From contig DCUH01000133.1 in NCBI GenBank assembly GCA_002327765.1, positions 58,885 through 122,884 of the forward strand: a stretch of DNA of 64,000 nt. Direction: 5' to 3'. The position numbers and the translations under genes were made by a program. The notes under the pieces are model-generated. The model was not told the DNA's origin, did no database searches, and was given only the letters and a program-made list of their open reading frames with translations. The DNA is from a bacterium UBA2219. Lineage in GTDB: Bacteria > Desulfobacterota > Deferrimicrobia > Deferrimicrobiales > Deferrimicrobiaceae. Shown here in pieces: positions 14,176-22,715 of this stretch (positions are counted from its first letter, which is position 1; each line of letters opens with the position of its first letter).

Positions 14176-14853
14176 TCAGGCCTTGAGGCCGACGGCCGAG
14201 CGGATGTTCCGCTTCATGCGCCCGATCGTCTCCTTGTAGTCCGGCGTCCCGAAAACCCCCGACCCCGAGACGATCACGTTCGCCCCGGCAGCCGCCACTT
14301 CCCCGACATTGTCGGCCTTGATCCCGCCGTCCACCTGGATGTCCACGTCCAGCTTCGCCCGCCGGATCTGCGAGCGGAGCAGCTCGATCTTCGCCAGCGA
14401 CGCCGGGAGGAACGCCTGCCCCCCGAACCCGGGGTTGACGCTCATGATCAGGACCATGTCCACGTCCTGGAGGACCCATTCGACGGCGGAAAGCGAGGTG
14501 CCCGGGTTCAGCGCCACGCCGGCTTTCCTGCCCAGCTCCCGGACCCGGGCCACGGCGCGCTGGAGGTGGGGCGTGGCCTCCGGGTGGACCGTGATGATGT
14601 CGGCCCCCGCACCGGAGAACGCGTCGATGTACCGCTCGGGCTCGACGATCATCAGGTGCACGTCCAGCGGTATCGTGGCGCATTTCCTGATCGCCTCGAC
14701 CACGAACGGGCCGATGGTGATGTTGGGGACGAACCTGCCGTCCATGACGTCCACGTGGAGGAGGTCGGCCCCCGCCTCCTCGATGGCCCGGATCTCCTCC
14801 GCCAGCCTCCCGAAGTCGGCGGACAACAGCGACGGCGCGATGTAATAGTCCAT
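14176..14853 (-). CDS. rpe: Ribulose-phosphate 3-epimerase
   Basis: Typical Rpe sequence (IAPSLLSADF...LHVDVMDGRFVPNITIGP...GGQAFLP...DGGI). 225 aa, with AGGGGAG RBS. Confidence 0.9.
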   Translation of the reverse strand: MDYYIAPSLLSADFGRLAEEIRAIEEAGADLLHVDVMDGRFVPNITIGPFVVEAIRKCATIPLDVHLMIVEPERYIDAFSGAGADIITVHPEATPHLQRAVARVRELGRKAGVALNPGTSLSAVEWVLQDVDMVLIMSVNPGFGGQAFLPASLAKIELLRSQIRRAKLDVDIQVDGGIKADNVGEVAAAGANVIVSGSGVFGTPDYKETIGRMKRNIRSAVGLKA

Positions 14854-14880
14854 GGATCTCCCCTTTCCCCGTATCCTACC

Positions 14881-14929
14881 TTAGAACCGGGACGTAGATG
14901 AGTTCTTCCGCAGTTCAGGGACACTCATG
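14881..14929 (-). repeat. Copy D of the ~50-nt repeat family, inverted relative to A/B/C so that it points toward rpe
   Basis: Rev-comp reads CATGAGTGTCCCTGAACTGCGGAAGAACTCATCTACGTCCCGGTTCTAA. It lies 30-75 nt upstream of the rpe start. Confidence 0.6.
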
Positions 14930-14967
14930 AAATCCCGGTTTGTCCGACTTGTCGGGCCGAATCCTTT

Positions 14968-15018
14968 CATCTCTGTCCCTGTTTTGCGGAAGAACTCATC
15001 TACGTCCCGGTTTTGTGG
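14968..15018 (+). repeat. Copy A of the ~50-nt repeat family
   Basis: CATCTCTGTCCCTGTTTTGCGGAAGAACTCATCTACGTCCCGGTTTTGTGG. It lies upstream of the caspase-like gene. Confidence 0.6.
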
Positions 15019-15029
15019 TCCGCCTCCTG

Positions 15030-15080
15030 CATCTCCGTCCCCAGGCTGGTGAGGAACTCATCAACGTCCCGGTTCCGGGG
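15030..15080 (+). repeat. Copy B of the ~50-nt repeat family (tandem to A)
   Basis: CATCTCCGTCCCCAGGCTGGTGAGGAACTCATCAACGTCCCGGTTCCGGGG. It ends 22 nt before the caspase ATG. Confidence 0.6.
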
Positions 15081-15102
15081 GCGGTCCTGGGGAGGTGCTT
15101 CC

Positions 15103-15963
15103 ATGAAGAAGAAGGCGTTGCTGGTCGGCATCGACAAATACCCGGATCCGCGCGACGGGTTGAGGGGGTGCGTCAACGACGTGCGCCTGATGGAGGAAAC
15201 GCTTCGCGGGGAATACGGTTTCTCCGGCAAGTCCGACATCCGCATCCTCGCCGACTCCCGCGCCACGACGGACGCGATCCTCGACGGCCTTTCGTGGCTC
15301 GTCGCCGGGGCGGCCCCCGGCGATTCCCTCGTGTTCCATTACTCCGGCCACGGTTCCCAGGTGCCCGACGACCGGCACGGCGACGAGACGTCCGACGGCC
15401 TCGACGAGATCCTTTGCCCCTACGACCTCGACTGGGACCGCCCGTTGACCGACGACCGCCTTGCCGCCGCGTGCGCCGGCATCCCGAGGGATGCGCTTCT
15501 TACCGTCATCCTCGACTGCTGCCATTCCGGCACCGGCCTGCGCGAGACCGGCCGCCCCTGCGGCCCGGCCCGCCCGCGCTTCATGCCGAGCCCGTCCGAT
15601 CCGTTCCCTCCGGCCCTGCGCCCCGTGCGCCGGTTCGGGGTATCCGTCACGAGGACCAAGGCGGTGCTGCTCGCCGCCTGCCGCGAAAACCAGACGTGCG
15701 CCGACGCCCCGATCGGCGCCTCCTGGCACGGCGCGCACACCTATTACCTCTGCCGGGCCTTGCGCCATGCCAACTGGATCGCAACCTATCGCGCGCTCGT
15801 CGCCTCCATGGGAGACGCCCTCGCCCGGGCCGGCTTCGACCAGGCCCCCCAGCTCGAGGGGCCGTCCCGCCTCCTGTCCTCCCGGTTCCTGGAACCTCCC
15901 CCGAAGGGGGGCGCCCGGAGGGAAACGGGGATGCGCATCGGGCTCCCCCTGCTGTGCCGGTGA
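15103..15963 (+). CDS. Caspase-like peptidase (peptidase C14, orthocaspase), stand-alone catalytic domain
   Basis: ALLVGIDKYPD...LRGCVNDV, His in HYSGHGSQ, and catalytic Cys in DCCHSG. 286 aa with no fused effector domain. GGGGAGG RBS. Confidence 0.85.
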   Translation: MKKKALLVGIDKYPDPRDGLRGCVNDVRLMEETLRGEYGFSGKSDIRILADSRATTDAILDGLSWLVAGAAPGDSLVFHYSGHGSQVPDDRHGDETSDGLDEILCPYDLDWDRPLTDDRLAAACAGIPRDALLTVILDCCHSGTGLRETGRPCGPARPRFMPSPSDPFPPALRPVRRFGVSVTRTKAVLLAACRENQTCADAPIGASWHGAHTYYLCRALRHANWIATYRALVASMGDALARAGFDQAPQLEGPSRLLSSRFLEPPPKGGARRETGMRIGLPLLCR

Positions 15964-16065
15964 GACGGCCGCCCTCCTTTTTCCGGAGAAAAGGGGGTTG
16001 CCGCCGGGCTATGCTGAAAGGCGAGGAAGAGAATCCGTCCGGTTCCATCGGAAAGGAGCTGTTCC

Positions 16066-18378
16066 ATGCCGGTCCGCGCGGCTTGTCTGGGATACCCTCG
16101 CATCGGGATCGACCGGGGATTGAAGAAGGCGCTCGAAAGCCACTGGGCGGGGAAGCTTTCCGCGGAGCAGCTCAAAGGCGTAGCCTCCGCGCTCCGCCGG
16201 GCCGCCTGGATGTCGATGAAGGTCGCCGGGATCGACCATATCCCGGGCAACGACTTTTCGCTGTACGATCACGTGCTCGACATGGCGGTCGCCGTCGGCG
16301 CCGTCCCCGCGCGCTACCGCCGCATCGAGGACCCTCTCGCCCGCTATTTCGCGATGGCGCGGGGGCTTCAGGACCACGCGGCGGGCATCGATGTCCCGGC
16401 GCTCGACATGACCAAGTGGTTCGACACGAATTACCACTACATCGTCCCGGAGCTGGAGGAGCGGCAGGCGTTCCGGCTCGACGCGTCGAAGATCCTGTCC
16501 GAGGTGGAGGAGGCGCGCTCCCTCGGGGTCGAGATCCGCCCCGTGGTCCCCGGCCCGGTCACCTTCCTGATGCTGTCCCGGTTCGGGCCCGGCGCGCGCG
16601 GTGGGCGCGTTCCCCTCGACCTTCTCGGCGCGCTGCTGCCGGTCTACGGGGAGCTGCTCGCGGCGCTGGCCGCTCGGGGCGTCGCGTGGGTCCAGGTCGA
16701 CGAGCCCTGCCTGGTCCTGGATCTCGACGACCGCGCCGCGGAAGCGTACCGGATCGCGCTTCGCCGGCTCGCCGCCTGCGAAAGCCGCCCGCGGCTGATG
16801 GTCGCTACCTGCTTCGGCCCTGTCGCCCGCAACCTGCCTCTGTTCGCGGAGTCGGGATGCGACGCCCTCCACGTCGACCTGGCGAGGGCCCCGGGCCAGC
16901 TGCAGGCGGTCCTCGACGGGCTTCCTCCCGAAGCGCAACTCTCCCTCGGCGTGGTGGACGGCCGCAACATCTGGCGCGCCGACCTGGACGCCGCCCACGC
17001 GCTCGTCCGGCGCGCCCGCGAGGCGCTCGGGGAGGAGAGGTTGTCCGTCGCCCCCTCCTGCTCCCTGCTCCACGTGCCGATCGACCTCGCCGCCGAGAAG
17101 CGGCTCGACCCCGGGCTGAAAGGCTGGCTCGCCTTCGCCGCCCAGAAGCTCGCGGAGGTGCGGGCGCTGGCGGACGCGGCCGGAGACGACGCGCCGGCGG
17201 GGCCGTTCTTCGAGGAGGCGCGCGCGGCGCTGGCCGGGCGGCGGGCGTCGCCCCGGACGCGCGACCCGGAGGTTCGGGCCCGGGCCGCCGCCGTGGACGC
17301 GGCGATGCTGCGCCGGGCCGCCCCCTTCGGGGAGCGCATCGCGAAGCAGCGGGCGCGCTTCGGCCTGCCGCTCCTGCCGACGACCACGATCGGCTCGTTC
17401 CCCCAGACCGCGGAGGTCCGCGAGGCCCGCGCGAAACGGCGGAAGGGGCAATGGACGGAAGAGGAGTACGAGGGCTTCCTCCGGGAGCAGGTGCGAAGGT
17501 GCGTCGCGACCCAGGAGAAGCTGGGGCTCGACGTCCTGGTTCACGGGGAGTTCGAGCGGAACGACATGGTCGAATACTTCGGGGAGAAGCTCGAGGGGTA
17601 CGCCTTCACCGAAAACGGCTGGGTCCAGAGCTACGGCTCCCGGTGCGTGAAGCCCCCCGTGCTCTTCGGGGACGTGTCGCGGCGCGCCCCCATGACGGTG
17701 GAATGGTCGGGGTTCGCCCGGTCGCTTTCGCGGCGGCCCATGAAGGGGATCCTCACCGGCCCGGTCACGATGCTCCAGTGGTCGTTCGTCCGGGACGACC
17801 AGCCGCGCGAGGAGACGTGCCTGCAGGTGGCGCTCGCGCTCCGCGACGAGGTGGCCGACCTCGAGGCCGCGGGGATCGCCATGATCCAGGTTGACGAGCC
17901 GGCGATCCGGGAAGGGCTGCCGCTGCGCCGCGGGGACCGGGCGGCATACCTGCGTTGGGCGGTCGACGCCTTCCGCCTCGCCACGAGCGGGGTCCGCGAC
18001 GAGACCCAGGTCCACACGCACCTGTGCTATTCGGAGTTCGGGGACATCATGGATTCCATCGTGGAAATGGACGCGGACGTCCTTTCCATCGAGTCGTCCC
18101 GCTCCGGGATGGAGCTGCTCTCCGATTTCCGACGCTGCAGCTACCCGAACGAGATCGGCCCCGGCGTCTACGACATCCATTCGCCGCGTGTTCCGTCCGC
18201 CGGGGAAATGGAGGAGCTGATCGCGAAGGCGGCCGAGGCGATCCCGCCGGCGCGCCTTTGGGTGAACCCGGACTGCGGCCTCAAGACGCGCGGCTGGACG
18301 GAGGTCGAGGCGGCGCTCGGGAACATGGTGGAAGCCGCGCGCCGGGTGAGGGAGCGGCTCGGCCCCCGGGAGGGCTGA
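16066..18378 (+). CDS. metE: Cobalamin-independent methionine synthase (5-methyltetrahydropteroyltriglutamate--homocysteine S-methyltransferase)
   Basis: 770 aa with N- and C-terminal MetE (UroD-like) barrels, a conserved N-terminus (VRAACLGYPRIGIDRGLKKALE) and a C-terminal Zn-binding region (HTHLCYSEF...DCGLKTR). Confidence 0.95.
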   Translation: MPVRAACLGYPRIGIDRGLKKALESHWAGKLSAEQLKGVASALRRAAWMSMKVAGIDHIPGNDFSLYDHVLDMAVAVGAVPARYRRIEDPLARYFAMARGLQDHAAGIDVPALDMTKWFDTNYHYIVPELEERQAFRLDASKILSEVEEARSLGVEIRPVVPGPVTFLMLSRFGPGARGGRVPLDLLGALLPVYGELLAALAARGVAWVQVDEPCLVLDLDDRAAEAYRIALRRLAACESRPRLMVATCFGPVARNLPLFAESGCDALHVDLARAPGQLQAVLDGLPPEAQLSLGVVDGRNIWRADLDAAHALVRRAREALGEERLSVAPSCSLLHVPIDLAAEKRLDPGLKGWLAFAAQKLAEVRALADAAGDDAPAGPFFEEARAALAGRRASPRTRDPEVRARAAAVDAAMLRRAAPFGERIAKQRARFGLPLLPTTTIGSFPQTAEVREARAKRRKGQWTEEEYEGFLREQVRRCVATQEKLGLDVLVHGEFERNDMVEYFGEKLEGYAFTENGWVQSYGSRCVKPPVLFGDVSRRAPMTVEWSGFARSLSRRPMKGILTGPVTMLQWSFVRDDQPREETCLQVALALRDEVADLEAAGIAMIQVDEPAIREGLPLRRGDRAAYLRWAVDAFRLATSGVRDETQVHTHLCYSEFGDIMDSIVEMDADVLSIESSRSGMELLSDFRRCSYPNEIGPGVYDIHSPRVPSAGEMEELIAKAAEAIPPARLWVNPDCGLKTRGWTEVEAALGNMVEAARRVRERLGPREG

Positions 18379-18603
18379 CTCCCCGGCTCCTTCGGCATCG
18401 CGTGGCATCCGCCCGTCGCCGGGCGCGCGACGGGGCCGGCCCCGCTCCGCCATGCAGCCCCGCTCCCCTTGCCCGTTTCCGCCGCTTCCGGTACTATCCC
18501 CATGCAGCGGAATCCGGTGCGCCGGGCTGCGGGAGACGTCGCATCGGGCAGCGATGCCCACGACGCCGACGATGCCGTCGACGCGGAAAGCGGGGAGCGG
18601 TCC

Positions 18604-19098
18604 TTGGAACCGAAATGGTACTTGGTCAAGACGAAGGCCCTGAACGAGAACCGGGTGGTCACTCGCCTCCTCGGCGCCGGGTACGAAGTCCTTTTCCCCA
18701 AGATCCGGAAGAAGTCGCGGCGCCACAAGGGCGTCTTCGACGTCCGGCCCCTCTTTCCCACGTATCTCTTCGTCCTTTTCCGCGGGGACGAGCTCAAGAC
18801 CATCAAGTACACCCACGGCGTCGCCCGCGTCATCTGCTTCGGCCTGGAGCCCCAGGAGGTCGATGAAGAGATCATCGTCGCGATCCGGGAGCGGATGGAC
18901 GCCGAAGGGTTCGTCAAGCTCGAGCCGAAGAAGGTCGAACTCGCCCCCGGCCAGAAGGTCAAGATCGGCGAAGGCCCCTTCGCGGGGCTCGACGCCATCT
19001 TCCTCGAGGAGCTTCCCGACCGCGAGCGCGTAGTCCTGCTCCTCGACGCCGTCTCCAGCTATAAGCTGACGATCGGGAAGAGCGACCTGGAGACGTAG
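18604..19098 (+). CDS. NusG-paralog transcription antiterminator (RfaH/UpxY/LoaP-like; NGN + KOW)
   Basis: MEPKWYLVKTKALNENRVVTRL... NGN domain and a C-terminal KOW (GQKVKIGEGPFAGLDAIF). Start chosen at TTG 18604, with a GGGGAG RBS 6 nt upstream. The ORF-track ATG at 18469 would add 45 non-conserved residues. Confidence 0.75.
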   Translation: MEPKWYLVKTKALNENRVVTRLLGAGYEVLFPKIRKKSRRHKGVFDVRPLFPTYLFVLFRGDELKTIKYTHGVARVICFGLEPQEVDEEIIVAIRERMDAEGFVKLEPKKVELAPGQKVKIGEGPFAGLDAIFLEELPDRERVVLLLDAVSSYKLTIGKSDLET

Positions 19099-19238: not shown

Positions 19239-19250
19239 GGCGGTAGCTTG
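19239..19250 (+). promoter_or_regulatory. ops-like element GGCGGTAGCTTG (consensus GGCGGTAGnnTG) in the leader of the polysaccharide operon
   Basis: Exact match to the 12-nt operon-polarity-suppressor consensus. It lies on the non-template strand, 140 nt downstream of the NusG-paralog gene and 125 nt upstream of the first export gene. Confidence 0.35.
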
Positions 19251-19373: not shown

Positions 19374-22300
19374 TTGCGGTTCCTGCCCCGCCATCTCTGT
19401 CCCCGTTCTGGTGAAGAACTCATCAACGTCCCGGTTCTGTGGGTCGCTCTCCTTCTCGCGCTCCTCCTGGTGCTTTCTGCGGGCGGGCCCGCCGGCGCGG
19501 CGGAGCCGCTCTCCTCCGGGGTCACTCCCGAGCAGGCGGCCGCGATGCGGCAGCTCGTAGGGTCCGACCCCGAGGCGGCGAAGGCGGTGGAGGAAACGCT
19601 CCGGAGGAAGGCGGAAGAAGCGGAAGGCGGGGGCGGGAGCGCGGCCGGGACGGCGGGCGAGGCGGAAAAGAGGGACCTCTTCGGGGGAAAAGCCGCGCCC
19701 GAAGGGTCGGAGGCCCGGGCCGCGCGGATCGCGGCGGAGCCGCGGTACGACTGGACGAAGTCCACCTACGTCGGCGGGCTCTTCGGGAAGCGACTCACCG
19801 CCCGGGAGCGGGAGACGCTGCCCCATTTCGGGCACGACCTGTTCGCCTTCTCCTCCGTGACGCTGCAACCTCATGAAAACCTGCCGGTTTCGCCGGGATA
19901 CGTCGTCGGGCCGGGCGACGAGATCGTGGTGCGGATGTGGGGGCGCGTCGAGGGGACGCAGCGCATGGTGGTCGACCGCGACGGGAAGATCTTCTTCCCG
20001 AAGTTCGGCTCCCTCTACGTGGCCGGGAAGACCTTCGACGAGGTGCGGGCCTTCCTCATGGGGAAGGTCCAGACGATCGCCGAGGTCAGCTCCGACGTCG
20101 GCCTGGGGCAGATGAAGGGGATCCGCGTCTCCGCGATGGGCGAGGTGCGCTTCCCGGGGTGGTACAGCGTCAGCTCGCTCCACACGGCGATGCAGGCGCT
20201 CTCCGCCGCCGGGGGGATCAAGGACATCGGCTCGCTGCGCCGGATCCTGATCCGGCGCGGGGGAGGCGTGGCCGGGGAGGTCGACCTGTACGATTTCCTC
20301 CTCAAAGGGGACACGCGCGGGGACATCCACCTGCTGCAGGGCGACGTCGTCTTCGTCCCGGTCGTGGGGAAGCTCGCGGCGGTCGCGGGGGAGGTCCGCC
20401 GCCCCGCCATCTACGAGCTGAAGGGGGAGCGGTCGCTGCTCGACCTGATCCGCCTCGCGGGCGGGTTCACCCCGGCGGCCTACAAGCGGCGCGTCCAGGT
20501 GGAGCGGCTCGAGGGGAACACCGCGCGCGTGGTCTTCGACGCCGACGCCGACGCGCTGGAAAAGGGCGGGCACGGCTTCGAGCCGGCCGACGGCGACTTG
20601 GTGCGCGTCTTCCCGATCGTCCTGGCCGAGGAAAACGCGGTCCGTGTCGAGGGGAACGTCCAGCGCCCCGGCCGGTACGAGATGAAGAAGGGCATGACGG
20701 TGGGATCCCTCTTCAAGGGGGAGAAGGAGTTCCTGCCCGACACGTATTTCGACTACGCGCTGATAACCCGCCTCGTGCCTCCCGACCTGCGCAAGGAGGT
20801 CGTCCCGGTCAACCTGCGCGAGATCGTGCTGGAGCGCAAGCCCGGCTCGGACGTGCCCCTCAAATCCCGCGACACGCTGCGGGTGTTCCGCAGGAGCGAG
20901 TTCCGGGACTACCCGAGGGCGTCCATCTCCGGGGAGGTGCGGCTGGTGCGGGCGGGGCTGCTCAAGGAACCGGGGCTCGACAACCAGGCGGAGGAGAGGT
21001 TGCTCCGGGACGAGGCGGGCGGGGAACGGCTCGACGGTCAGGCGTCAGGGCGGGAAGCGGAGCGGCGCGCTGCCGCGTTCCCGGGCGCGGACGGCCTGCG
21101 CTCCGGCATGCGCCCCGTGGATTCCGTCGCCGCCGCCGATCTCCGCGATCGGGAGTTGCGCCGGATGGATCCGCGCAGGGCGGATCCGCCCGACCGGATG
21201 CTCCCCGACAGGGAACGGGACGCCCGCGGCGCGGCGCCCCGGGACGCGAACGGCCGCGACGCCAACCGGCGCGACCCGTCGGCCCGCGAAAGGGCGCTTC
21301 GGGACGCGGCCGACCGCGGCATGGACACCCGCGCCGAGGAGATCCTGAAGGCGGAGGAGCGCGGGGCGGACGTCCGCGACGTGGACGCCCCCAGGGCGGA
21401 GTCCCCCTTCTGGCGCGACGCGGTCTCCTTCGAGATCCACGGCGGGACGCGGGTGGCCGACCTCGTCCGGATGGCGGGCGGCCTCACCCGCATGGCGCAC
21501 CTCGATCGCGCCGAGATCGTCCGCGTGGACGAGAACCGCAACTACCGGACGATCTACTTCCACCTGGGCAAGGCGGTCGCCGGCGACCCGCAGGAGAACA
21601 GGCTCCTGGAAAACGAGGACCAGGTCCGCATCCACTCGGTGCTGGAGATGTCGTCCCGCAAGACGGTGTCCGTCTCGGGCGAGGTGAACCTGCCGGGCGA
21701 CTTCGTCCTCACGGAAGGGATGAAGCTGTCCGACCTGCTGTTCAAGGCCGGCGGTTTCCGGGAGAGCGCCTACCGGAGGGAGGCCGAGCTGGTGCGCCGG
21801 GAGGTCAACGTCCAGGGCGACCTCGTCAAGACGCAGGCGGTGGTCGTCTATCCCGACCGCGCGCTGTCGGGCGACAACACGGCGGACATCCCGTTGAAGG
21901 CCGACGACTACCTCTACGTCCGGCAGATCCCCGACTGGGGCGAGAAGATCGTCGTCACGCTGGCGGGGGAGTTCCGCTTCCCGGGGACCTACGCGGTGGC
22001 GAAAGGCGAGCGGATCAGCTCCGTGATCGAGCGGGCGGGCGGCTACACGACGGGCGCCTACGTGAAGGCCGGCGTCTTCACCCGCGTCTCCACCCGCGAG
22101 GCGCAGCAGCAGGCGATCGACCGGATGATCGAGGAGCTCGAGACCTCGATCGCGGAGAAGGGGCAGGAGGTGGGCGCCGCCCTCGACAAGGAGGACGTCG
22201 AGTCGAACCGGCAGCTTCTCGAGGCCCGAAGGAACCTCGTCTCCCAGCTGCGGAAGCTGAAGGCCCAGGGGCGGGTCATCGTGCGCCTTCGGGACCCCGA

Positions 22301-22715
22301 CGCGATGAAGGGGAGCAGCGACGACATCTTCCTGGAAGACGGCGACCGGCTCTACGTGCCGCAGAAGATGAACGTGGTGAACGTCGTGGGGAGGGTCTAC
22401 AACCCGACTGGCGTCGTCTACGACCCGGCGAACGACACCCTGGGCCATTACCTGAAGAGGGTCGGCGGGCCCGCGGGCAACGCGGACGAGGACAACATCT
22501 TTCTCCTGAAGGCGGACGGCTCGGTGGTGAGCCGCGCCAACGCCGACGGCAACTTCTTCACCGGCGGCTTCATGTCCTCGAAGGTGGAGCCGGGCGACTC
22601 CATCATCGTGCCGCAGAAGCTGTTCGAGGCCCGGGCGATGAAGGACGTGAAGGACCTCATCCAGATCATGTACCAGATCGCCGTGTCGGTAGGCGTGCTG
22701 GTGGTGGCGTTTTAG
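19374..22715 (+). CDS. Polysaccharide export protein, Wza/KpsD-like with Poly_export and multiple SLBB domains (paralog 1, about 1113 aa)
   Basis: Repeated SLBB-type modules (VVGPGDEIVVRMWGRVEG..., GEVRFPGWYSV..., GEVRRPAIYELKGERSLLDLIRLAGG..., GEFRFPGTYAVAKGERISSVIERAGG...). TTG start with an AGGAGGA RBS. Signal-like hydrophobic core WVALLLALLLVLSAGG. Contains an Arg/Asp-rich low-complexity insert of about 140 aa. Confidence 0.85.
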   Translation: MRFLPRHLCPRSGEELINVPVLWVALLLALLLVLSAGGPAGAAEPLSSGVTPEQAAAMRQLVGSDPEAAKAVEETLRRKAEEAEGGGGSAAGTAGEAEKRDLFGGKAAPEGSEARAARIAAEPRYDWTKSTYVGGLFGKRLTARERETLPHFGHDLFAFSSVTLQPHENLPVSPGYVVGPGDEIVVRMWGRVEGTQRMVVDRDGKIFFPKFGSLYVAGKTFDEVRAFLMGKVQTIAEVSSDVGLGQMKGIRVSAMGEVRFPGWYSVSSLHTAMQALSAAGGIKDIGSLRRILIRRGGGVAGEVDLYDFLLKGDTRGDIHLLQGDVVFVPVVGKLAAVAGEVRRPAIYELKGERSLLDLIRLAGGFTPAAYKRRVQVERLEGNTARVVFDADADALEKGGHGFEPADGDLVRVFPIVLAEENAVRVEGNVQRPGRYEMKKGMTVGSLFKGEKEFLPDTYFDYALITRLVPPDLRKEVVPVNLREIVLERKPGSDVPLKSRDTLRVFRRSEFRDYPRASISGEVRLVRAGLLKEPGLDNQAEERLLRDEAGGERLDGQASGREAERRAAAFPGADGLRSGMRPVDSVAAADLRDRELRRMDPRRADPPDRMLPDRERDARGAAPRDANGRDANRRDPSARERALRDAADRGMDTRAEEILKAEERGADVRDVDAPRAESPFWRDAVSFEIHGGTRVADLVRMAGGLTRMAHLDRAEIVRVDENRNYRTIYFHLGKAVAGDPQENRLLENEDQVRIHSVLEMSSRKTVSVSGEVNLPGDFVLTEGMKLSDLLFKAGGFRESAYRREAELVRREVNVQGDLVKTQAVVVYPDRALSGDNTADIPLKADDYLYVRQIPDWGEKIVVTLAGEFRFPGTYAVAKGERISSVIERAGGYTTGAYVKAGVFTRVSTREAQQQAIDRMIEELETSIAEKGQEVGAALDKEDVESNRQLLEARRNLVSQLRKLKAQGRVIVRLRDPDAMKGSSDDIFLEDGDRLYVPQKMNVVNVVGRVYNPTGVVYDPANDTLGHYLKRVGGPAGNADEDNIFLLKADGSVVSRANADGNFFTGGFMSSKVEPGDSIIVPQKLFEARAMKDVKDLIQIMYQIAVSVGVLVVAF
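19392..19443 (+). repeat. Copy C of the ~50-nt repeat family, overlapping the 5' end of the first export gene
   Basis: CATCTCTGTCCCCGTTCTGGTGAAGAACTCATCAACGTCCCGGTTCTGTGGG. Confidence 0.6.

Follow-up and report, generated by a model that had tools for sequence, protein, structure and literature searches.

The window analysed here is a stretch of 64,000 nucleotides from the bacterium UBA2219 of the Deferrimicrobiaceae (contig DCUH01000133.1 of assembly GCA_002327765.1, positions 58,885 to 122,884), and our subject is the gene for a small caspase that lies on its forward strand at 15103..15963. Downstream of it, on the same strand, come metE, a gene for an RfaH-like paralog of NusG and a gene for a Wza-like polysaccharide export protein. 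Immediately upstream there are several arms of a palindromic repeat, and beyond these the contig runs into rpe. An earlier note on this DNA, made from its letters and a list of open reading frames, had picked out the caspase as a stand-alone protease placed directly before metE and behind tandem repeat copies.

The caspase and its family

The caspase reading frame (15103..15963, + strand) is preceded by GGGAGG at 15090-15095 and encodes a protein of 286 aa that matches the Pfam family PF00656 (Peptidase_C14) along residues 2-252, with an E-value of 1.7e-29 and a score of 103.6 bits (cutoff 21.4); the Pfam scan found no second domain in the 286 residues. Both members of the catalytic dyad are in place, His83 (CAC, 15349-15351) within the motif YSGHGSQ and Cys140 (TGC, 15520-15522) within DCCHSG, and these motifs align with HYSGHG and DSCHSG of AtMC4 and Yca1. 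In an alignment (A1) of 23 sequences, the window protein and 22 homologues with 63-85% identity, His83 and Cys140 are invariant. The earlier note was therefore right to describe a C14 domain with an intact His/Cys dyad and nothing fused to it, and the alternative that it raised, a non-catalytic caspase-fold family, finds no footing among the 22 homologues. Three aspartates are invariant in the same alignment, D26 (in CVND), D138 (in LDCCH) and D201, and all of them sit in motifs shared with metacaspases. So are Q197, A200 and A202, which together with D201 belong to the p10-type motif QTCADA, and the acidic stretch D94 E95 D98 D101 E102 is conserved. D26, D138 and D201 are the presumed residues of the S1 pocket, as in TbMCA2, and acidic residues at these positions would most likely direct cleavage after Arg or Lys.

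Among the solved structures the best matches are AtMC4 (E 3.5e-26) and Yca1 (E 3.8e-26), followed by AtMC9 and TbMCA2, the last of which aligns with residues 4-254 of the caspase as one stretch. The C-terminal half has a counterpart as well: residues 183-253 align with the p10 regions of AtMC4 (337-405) and Yca1 (270-338), as in the pairing of LLAACRENQTCADA in the caspase with LISGCQTDQTSADA in AtMC4, these p10 stretches being weak when taken alone (9.0 bits for AtMC4 and 7.1 bits for Yca1). An AlphaFold model built on the 23-sequence alignment was too poor for use (pLDDT 51.5, falling below 50 in the C-terminal half), and we have therefore relied on the sequence matches to solved metacaspases. 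At the N-terminus there is neither a proline-rich nor a zinc-finger prodomain: the Pfam domain begins at residue 2 and the homologues begin MKKALLVG. There is no signal peptide either, and the protein opens directly with the first beta strand (MKKKALLVGI). The linker that leads from Cys140 to the p10 half carries anything from 0 to about 45 inserted residues among the relatives and is bordered by the invariant Arg147 and Arg159, which makes it a plausible candidate for a self-cleavage site. Like its solved relatives, the enzyme is probably activated by calcium, by self-cleavage in the linker after Cys140, or by both. We regard it as a cytoplasmic C14 peptidase in which a p20 half is followed by a p10-like one and, judged by its sequence, the open reading frame specifies a real and probably active single-domain bacterial metacaspase.

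Several known caspase systems invite comparison. With the type I metacaspases (Yca1/Mca1, PDB 4F6O; T. brucei MCA2, PDB 4AF8; AtMC1) the window protein has in common the motifs HYSGHG and D(S/C)CHSG, the acidic stretch GDE..DG.DE.I.P.D and the p10 motif QT(S/C)ADA, as well as the order of p20 before p10 with a short linker; it differs from them in being bacterial, in having no N-terminal prodomain and in being much shorter. The orthocaspases, represented by MaOC1 of Microcystis aeruginosa, resemble it as prokaryotic C14 proteins with the His/Cys dyad and an expected cleavage at basic residues, and MaOC1 is likewise without an extra C-terminal domain (PMC5756287). However, orthocaspases by definition have no p10 domain (PMC5756287), whereas the C-terminal half of the window caspase aligns with metacaspase p10. 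The name “orthocaspase” that had been given to it therefore fits in so far as this is a prokaryotic C14 protease, but it is a loose label in view of the p10-like half, and “prodomain-less bacterial metacaspase” is a better one. The third comparison is with GSU0716 of Geobacter sulfurreducens (PDB 3BIJ, 285 aa), also a free-standing bacterial caspase-fold protein of similar size and from a related bacterial group; its similarity to the window caspase (E 1.2e-12, residues 23-232) is far weaker than that of the eukaryotic metacaspases, and we therefore place it in a different subfamily.

The C14 domain stands alone in 398 of the 671 prokaryotic metacaspases surveyed by Asplund-Samuelsson et al. 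(PMC3501461). Our own homologue search gave 3783 proteins at E <= 0.001 among the candidates examined; the 120 of these 3783 that were listed are without exception single-domain proteins, 222-337 aa in length. Moreover, at least 577 caspase loci were confirmed in species-representative genomes of many phyla. The single-domain form is the commonest architecture of prokaryotic metacaspases, and the window caspase is an ordinary example from a known and very large family. The suggestion that a free-standing caspase is something unusual must, in view of these counts, be given up.

The surface-polysaccharide locus

To describe the surroundings of the gene we have compared 80 genome loci (L005-L084) that were searched with the window proteins. 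They include L005, from the nearest species (77% identity), 10 other loci belonging to the family (L006, L007, L009, L010, L011, L012, L014, L015, L017 and L032), which appear in the records as Deferrimicrobiaceae or Candidatus Deferrimicrobium of the candidate phylum MBNT15, and about 62 more distant, non-family loci. We have also used three caspase-side contigs from other assemblies of the same strain as the window (L001, L002 and L004). The gene order of the family is well kept. It begins with an M20 peptidase gene on the minus strand, a GDP-mannose-4,6-dehydratase-like gene and two NAD-dependent epimerase/dehydratase genes, after which comes the caspase; behind the caspase stand the NusG paralog and Wza, joined at some loci by Wzi, and then Wzz together with genes for a flippase and for glycosyltransferases. 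The stretch from the M20 peptidase to the epimerases is present in all 12 family loci with enough sequence on that side (L001, L006-L012, L015-L017 and L032), and in L005, L014 and L029, where the upstream sequence is too short to reach the M20 gene, the epimerase part can be seen. On the downstream side, the NusG paralog follows the caspase in 11 family loci, L005 and the 10 named above, the two genes sharing a strand in these 10, and Wza and Wzz are kept wherever the sequence extends far enough.

In the window itself the NusG paralog (18469..19098, + strand) is recognised by the Pfam NusG NGN domain (3.6e-12). Of the NCBIfam models, RfaH (TIGR01955) fits it best, with 95.6 bits that fall short of the cutoff of 144.5, and the cutoff for UpxY is not reached either. 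An ops-like motif, GGCGGTAGCTTG, lies 141 nt after the stop codon of the paralog, at 19239..19250 (+ strand), within the Wza operon leader. This is the single match to the ops pattern, GGCGGTAGNNTG, in the 64 kb, against 0.12 expected. The full ops-like 12-mer recurs 140-150 nt past the paralog in five relatives (L007:12195, L009:11906, L012:5890, L014:2724 and L032:12284), and variants at its last positions are found 140-310 nt past the paralog in L006, L011 and L015, giving a family consensus of GGCGGTAGC(C/T)(T/C)(G/T) before the Wza operon across the Deferrimicrobiaceae species. The Wza-like protein (19374..22715, + strand, from the L001 gene call; Pfam Poly_export/SLBB) is encoded by the gene that opens the export and assembly part; its matches to the NCBIfam models for PEP-CTERM-type export and for EpsE both remain below cutoff. 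The arrangement thus resembles the RfaH/ops system that governs long surface-polysaccharide operons in the enterobacteria, in that a NusG paralog stands beside a Wza-type locus and GGCGGTAGCTTG in the leader fits ops and is conserved in relatives. It differs from that system in that the window paralog falls below the cutoffs for both RfaH and UpxY and is encoded inside the locus that it presumably controls.

A similar association is seen in the Desulfarculaceae, with another gene order: in L037 the NusG paralog comes first, followed by the caspase, a DegT aminotransferase, an unknown gene, Wza and YjbH. L039, L059 and L060 resemble L037; the caspase of L060 has sugar-nucleotide genes on both sides. 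The loci of other phyla are mostly without polysaccharide neighbours, and those of the Acidobacteriota have a conserved caspase context of their own. The caspase is, then, a stable resident at the head of a surface-polysaccharide locus in its family, and a recurrent one in a second lineage. What the earlier note called a metabolic neighbourhood is better described as a polysaccharide locus, with RfaH-like and Wza genes downstream and, in the family, GDP-sugar genes upstream.

Such gene orders suggest a functional tie of the caspase to the polysaccharide locus. Two points weigh against it: related polysaccharide genes are found within 10 kb in 7 of about 62 non-family loci, and conserved synteny inside one family may be a matter of inheritance without any functional tie. 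In its most explicit form, the tie would make the caspase a dedicated regulatory protease of the locus, processing for example the RfaH-like factor, a chain-length regulator or a priming transferase and thereby adjusting the production of matrix or capsule. This would account for the position of the caspase beside the RfaH-like paralog at the heads of Wza-type loci in two lineages that differ in gene order, the caspase preceding the paralog in the Deferrimicrobiaceae and the paralog preceding the caspase in the four Desulfarculaceae loci. It would also suit the GDP-mannose-dehydratase-like genes within 10 kb of the caspase in L052, L056 and L063, and the ops-like 12-mer found 190 nt before the caspase of L049. 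However, most loci of other phyla have no such neighbours, the Acidobacteriota context is a different one, the slot beside the caspase tolerates unrelated insertions (see below), and a literature search for a link between caspases and exopolysaccharide returned no relevant report. We consider a dedicated regulator of this kind unlikely and lean instead, with some reserve, towards an intracellular housekeeping or stress protease that is held in its place by inherited synteny.

Three further features of the polysaccharide locus deserve to be recorded. The third epimerase/dehydratase, which is the native upstream neighbour of the caspase (L001:7814-9742, and also L011:7692-9617), is 642 aa long and shows a faint LAGLIDADG_3 match between its two epimerase halves, which in most relatives are contiguous (about 310 aa). 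This suggests that the sugar-nucleotide epimerase contains an intein. Secondly, the GC content of the window falls to 0.42-0.54 between 27000 and 34000, probably still within the polysaccharide locus, as against about 0.66-0.70 in its flanks; such low values are typical of horizontally exchanged glycosyltransferase or O-unit genes. Finally, a motif with sigma-54-like GG-N10-GC spacing, CGGYCCKYCCNTTGC, occurs 50-220 nt 5' of the caspase start in 11 relatives (L007:9934-9948, L008:3032, L010:4780, L011:9784, L012:3514, L014:82, L015:9934, L016:5534, L017:3686, L029:1388 and L032:9934). In loci with the palindromic element described in the next section, the element separates this motif from the caspase ribosome-binding site. 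The window lineage, L005 and L006 do not have the motif before their caspase genes, and a search of the window with the sigma-54 consensus gave fewer matches than chance.

A dispersed palindromic repeat

Four arms of a palindromic repeat are present in the window, all of them within 4.6 kb of the head of the locus and none elsewhere in the 64 kb. The left arm is inverted (14878..14932, - strand; inverted repeat I1, with its core match at 14885-14905). It is followed by a right arm on the + strand, copy A (14965..15019; 14957-15019 as a member of repeat family D1), in which the repeat scan found two 29-nt subunits (family D2), and by an extra right arm in tandem, copy B (15019..15081, + strand; family D1), which is peculiar to the window lineage; L005 has one right arm at the caspase site and no second copy. 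A solo arm (19381..19443, + strand) stands before the start of the Wza-like gene or overlaps it, with 81% identity to copy B and an exact match to the core. This 21-nt core, GAACTCATSWACGTCCCGGTT, occurs at 14885 (- strand) and at 14992, 15054 and 19416 (+ strand), that is, four times where 0.02 would be expected. The left arm pairs with copy A through 55-nt arms that are 84% complementary and enclose a 32-nt spacer; the repeat arm measures about 52 nt, reads CATSTCTGTCCC...GGRAGAACTCATSWACGTCCCGGTTYTGYGG and is built of two 29-nt subunits. The tandem copies A and B that had been placed before the caspase from the letters alone are confirmed by these counts, and the inventory was correct for the two of them, while the inverted copy at 14878-14932 and the fourth copy at 19381-19443 had been overlooked.

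The element is dispersed. L001 carries eight arms in 20 kb. Besides the element at the caspase it has two complete ones, of which the first separates a transporter gene from a lactamase_B gene and the second lies between the first two epimerase genes; in its three elements the arms are alike and the central spacers are unrelated. The core is also found on 23 further metagenome contigs with different flanks, mostly as inverted pairs 146-242 nt apart, and most of the metagenome copies are without a long in-frame open reading frame. Among the relatives, variants of the element occupy orthologous intergenic sites in at least nine. The site between epimerase and caspase is occupied in L005, L008, L010, L011, L014, L016, L017 and L029 (and, in a diverged form, in L006), that between dehydratase and epimerase in L008, L009, L010 and L011, and that after the RfaH-like gene in L011 and L014. 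At the caspase site the element is absent from L007, L009, L012, L015 and L032, without any other change. These repeats are thus the arms of a dispersed REPIN-like palindromic element and are not specific to the caspase. A link between the repeat and caspase homologues, which the earlier note had proposed to look for, is not an exclusive one: five relatives lack the element at the caspase site, and there are copies of it on 23 other contigs.

The likeness to REPINs extends to several features. In two reports (PMC3337134; bioRxiv 10.1101/2021.07.10.451892), REPINs are pairs of inverted repeats with a less conserved spacer that can form a long hairpin, and they are intergenic, present in many copies of a genome-specific variant and long-lived at the same sites. 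Our element has the paired arms, the variable spacer, the genome-specific variant and the persistence at its sites, and its eight arms in 20 kb of L001 make many intergenic copies per genome probable. REPINs are REP doublets mobilised by RAYT transposases. They differ from the window element in being built on a single short REP hairpin, as against an arm of about 52 nt with two 29-nt subunits in the window, and the host of the window belongs to a candidate phylum for which there is no curated family of this kind, Rfam yielding a spurious microRNA match only. That match, to MIR3444 at 14878-15019, has 43 bits against a gathering score of 80 and reflects nothing other than the long hairpin.

Could the palindrome be a functional regulatory structure of the locus, either an RNA hairpin that blocks read-through or takes part in processing, or a binding site for a protein? 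Its orthologous intergenic sites in many species, with 9 loci occupied between epimerase and caspase, 5 between dehydratase and epimerase and 3 after the RfaH-like gene, and the clustering of all four window arms at the locus head would be in keeping with such a function. So would the pairing of the arms: in an alignment of the element from eight species, 11 of the 36 base pairs show compensatory double changes and almost none are broken. However, all the repeat copies in one genome are the same genome-specific variant, as would be expected from concerted evolution, and for this reason the compensatory pattern is no proof of selection on each hairpin. Furthermore, the element can be missing from the caspase site with nothing else changed, as in the five relatives listed above, its copies elsewhere have unrelated flanks and its central spacer is unconserved. 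A regulatory function at this locus is therefore rather improbable in our view, and we prefer to see the repeats as members of a dispersed REPIN-like family.

Other identities were considered for the element and rejected. An integron attC site came to mind because the arms end AAC...GTT and the breakpoint of the contig (see below) lies at that edge; the ends misfit the RYYYAAC/GTTRRRY pattern, the segments between elements are multigene blocks of 3-4 kb whose order is kept in species without the element, and no integrase is evident. The arm might also have been a portable start codon, since it can contain an ATG (GGAGGAACTCATGAACGTCCCGGTT) and two L001 genes are called from it; this is no general property, as most copies have ATC in its place or a short in-frame open reading frame, and the caspase starts in a different frame, with a Shine-Dalgarno sequence and an ATG of its own. 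Nor is it necessary to regard the repeat as a recruitment site for the RfaH-like protein, given that a separate and conserved ops-like 12-mer exists.

Two details of the arms may be added. At L001:3284, L001:6774 and L085:77 the arm reads GGAGGAACTC-ATG-AACGTCCCGGTT, and the proteins called there (lactamase_B and epimerase) begin MNVPVLR; these are probably over-extended gene calls. At the outer ends of many metagenome arms, for example L098:1415, L100:2051 and L103:3103 (all on the - strand), the last 8-12 nt are iterated in tandem, with GGTTYTGCGG or CCGGTTTTGCGGTT repeated 2-3 times, which suggests slippage or stepwise growth.

The left junction

The window contig is at odds with three other assemblies (ENA ERZ27315072/ERZ27315071, JGI 3300001580 and Logan SRR5323303) as to what lies on the left of the caspase. 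In these an identical caspase gene has the epimerase cluster to its left, not rpe, and the contigs L001, L002 and L004 show 100% identity to the window from position 14885 to the right and no relation to it further left. The same three sources carry an identical rpe gene on separate contigs (L108, L109 from Logan, and L110), none of which extends more than about 180 nt beyond that gene. L108 and L110 follow the window as far as 14912, where both pass into another sequence, AAACAGGGACACACATGCGG... (AAACAGGGACACACATGCGGACC...); L109 stops 2-3 nt beyond 14912, with final bases that fit the continuation of L108. The sole sequence common to the rpe and the caspase contexts is the 28-nt stretch 14885..14912, AACCGGGACGTAGATGAGTTCTTCCGCA, which lies inside a repeat arm, is common to two genomic copies of the repeat and is the probable point of mis-joining or recombination (the sites for a comparison of the junctions are L001:9740-9830 and L108:1-200). 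The arrangement of L001, with the epimerases upstream, agrees with the synteny of the family and with L005.

Considering these contigs side by side, the window most likely connects, by way of the repeat, two loci of one genome, making the adjacency of rpe and caspase a chimeric one. Against this, the junction could be a genuine strain-specific recombination between repeat copies. In either case we do not count rpe, a LUD-domain gene, a tRNA and the genes further left among the native neighbours of the caspase, and any inference that treats rpe and the genes upstream of it as belonging to the caspase locus is unsafe.

metE and its spacer

The gene that follows the caspase in the window encodes a complete cobalamin-independent methionine synthase of 770 aa (metE, 16066..18378, + strand), with both the Meth_synt_1 and Meth_synt_2 domains of Pfam and an NCBIfam equivalog score of 1099 bits (cutoff 541). 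It is on the same strand as the caspase and separated from it by exactly 102 nt. A consensus scan detected no terminator on the + strand between the two genes. No riboswitch was found by Rfam, either at the gathering threshold in the window or at E-values up to 10 in the interval 14800-16200, and the metE leader has no Rfam match to a SAM or cobalamin riboswitch. On the other hand, the caspase stop codon is directly followed by a GC-rich hairpin without a U tract (15964..16010, + strand), with a folding energy of -21.6 kcal/mol; it is not conserved in L005 and was not called by the terminator scan, and the spacer as a whole has a folding z-score of -2.18. Compared with L005, the 102-nt spacer is conserved at the ribosome-binding region only. 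The earlier statement of a 102-nt gap with no obvious terminator is therefore accurate as to the gap and the scan, yet it passes over a stable hairpin, in view of which the missing canonical terminator is no proof of co-transcription.

The adjacency of caspase and metE is a rare one. Conservation among orthologues had been proposed as its test, and metE follows the caspase in just 1 of the 76 loci from other species, that of L005; it does not do so in the 10 further family loci or in any of the approximately 62 more distant ones. What lies between the caspase and the NusG paralog varies by species. The interval is empty (108-331 nt) in L006, L009 and L015, it holds a pair of genes for DUF7718 and DUF5647 proteins in L007, L010, L011, L012, L014, L017 and L032, and it holds metE in the window lineage and L005 only. 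For this reason we regard metE as a lineage-specific occupant of a variable slot and not as a functional partner of the caspase, their adjacency being a recent accident of two species. The DUF7718 (104 aa) and DUF5647 (94 aa) cassette (for example L032:10926-11509) is also present in two copies in the Nitrospirae locus L068, and looks like a small mobile or toxin-antitoxin-like pair.

The contrary explanation is that the caspase and metE form a functional, co-transcribed two-gene unit in which the protease acts on methionine metabolism or is co-regulated with it. Their common strand, the short gap with neither canonical terminator nor riboswitch and the recurrence of the arrangement in the nearest species would all fit, but the pair is missing from the 10 other family loci, where the slot is empty or otherwise filled, and from all of the approximately 62 more distant ones, and its spacer combines a strong hairpin with conservation that is confined to the ribosome-binding region. 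We judge such a unit to be very improbable. It should be said against our own view of an incidental metE that the caspase, metE and the RfaH-like gene might nevertheless be co-transcribed in this lineage.

Discussion

When all these observations are taken together, it seems to us likely that the window contains a metacaspase resident in a polysaccharide locus, with an incidental metE beside it, REPIN-like repeats around it and a mis-joined left edge. In this scheme the caspase would act in the cytoplasm, cutting after Arg or Lys by means of His83 and Cys140 and an acidic S1 pocket, and calcium and/or self-cleavage in the linker would activate it. Its gene is conserved at the head of the polysaccharide locus, in the order epimerases, caspase, RfaH-like antiterminator, ops-like site, Wza, Wzi and Wzz, and may possibly be co-expressed with the locus, while the repeat hairpins may act on the transcripts. 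The native upstream neighbour of the caspase is the epimerase cluster, and the join to rpe is most likely an assembly artefact.

As to the role of the protease, our ranking places housekeeping or stress proteolysis first, regulation of the polysaccharide locus second, and partnership with metE or a part in defence last. An effector or activator of defence or programmed cell death, of the kind of a gasdermin-activating protease or of the EACC1/NTPase conflict systems, is a most improbable identity for it, because the generic caspase model of PADLOC, the only one to match (E 3.4e-26), is covered over no more than positions 3-150 of 453, a part of the catalytic domain, the weak NCBIfam match to “caspase, EACC1-associated type” (NF047832) reaches 47.9 bits against a cutoff of 140, over residues 4-87 only and with no extra domain, there is no gasdermin, STAND NTPase, TIR or EACC1 partner adjacent to the caspase, whose neighbours are an epimerase and metE, and its synteny is stable across species, unlike that of typical defence islands.

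A more ambitious idea may be mentioned, which we hold to be quite doubtful. The prodomain-less metacaspase subfamily could be a dedicated component of polysaccharide loci controlled by RfaH-like proteins and ops in MBNT15 and in some Desulfobacterota, with the REPIN-like hairpins between transcription units serving as barriers that only a polymerase modified by the antiterminator would pass. If this were true, it would link caspase-type proteolysis to the control of capsule or biofilm matrix.

By itself the finding of a caspase next to metE carries little weight, as it concerns a typical single-domain metacaspase and an incidental neighbour. The REPIN-like family, which occurs in an uncultured candidate phylum and at the same intergenic sites across species, is relevant to the study of long-lived intragenomic repeats. 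The arrangement of caspase, RfaH-like gene and ops-like site provides a concrete and testable context for the bacterial functions of this protease family.

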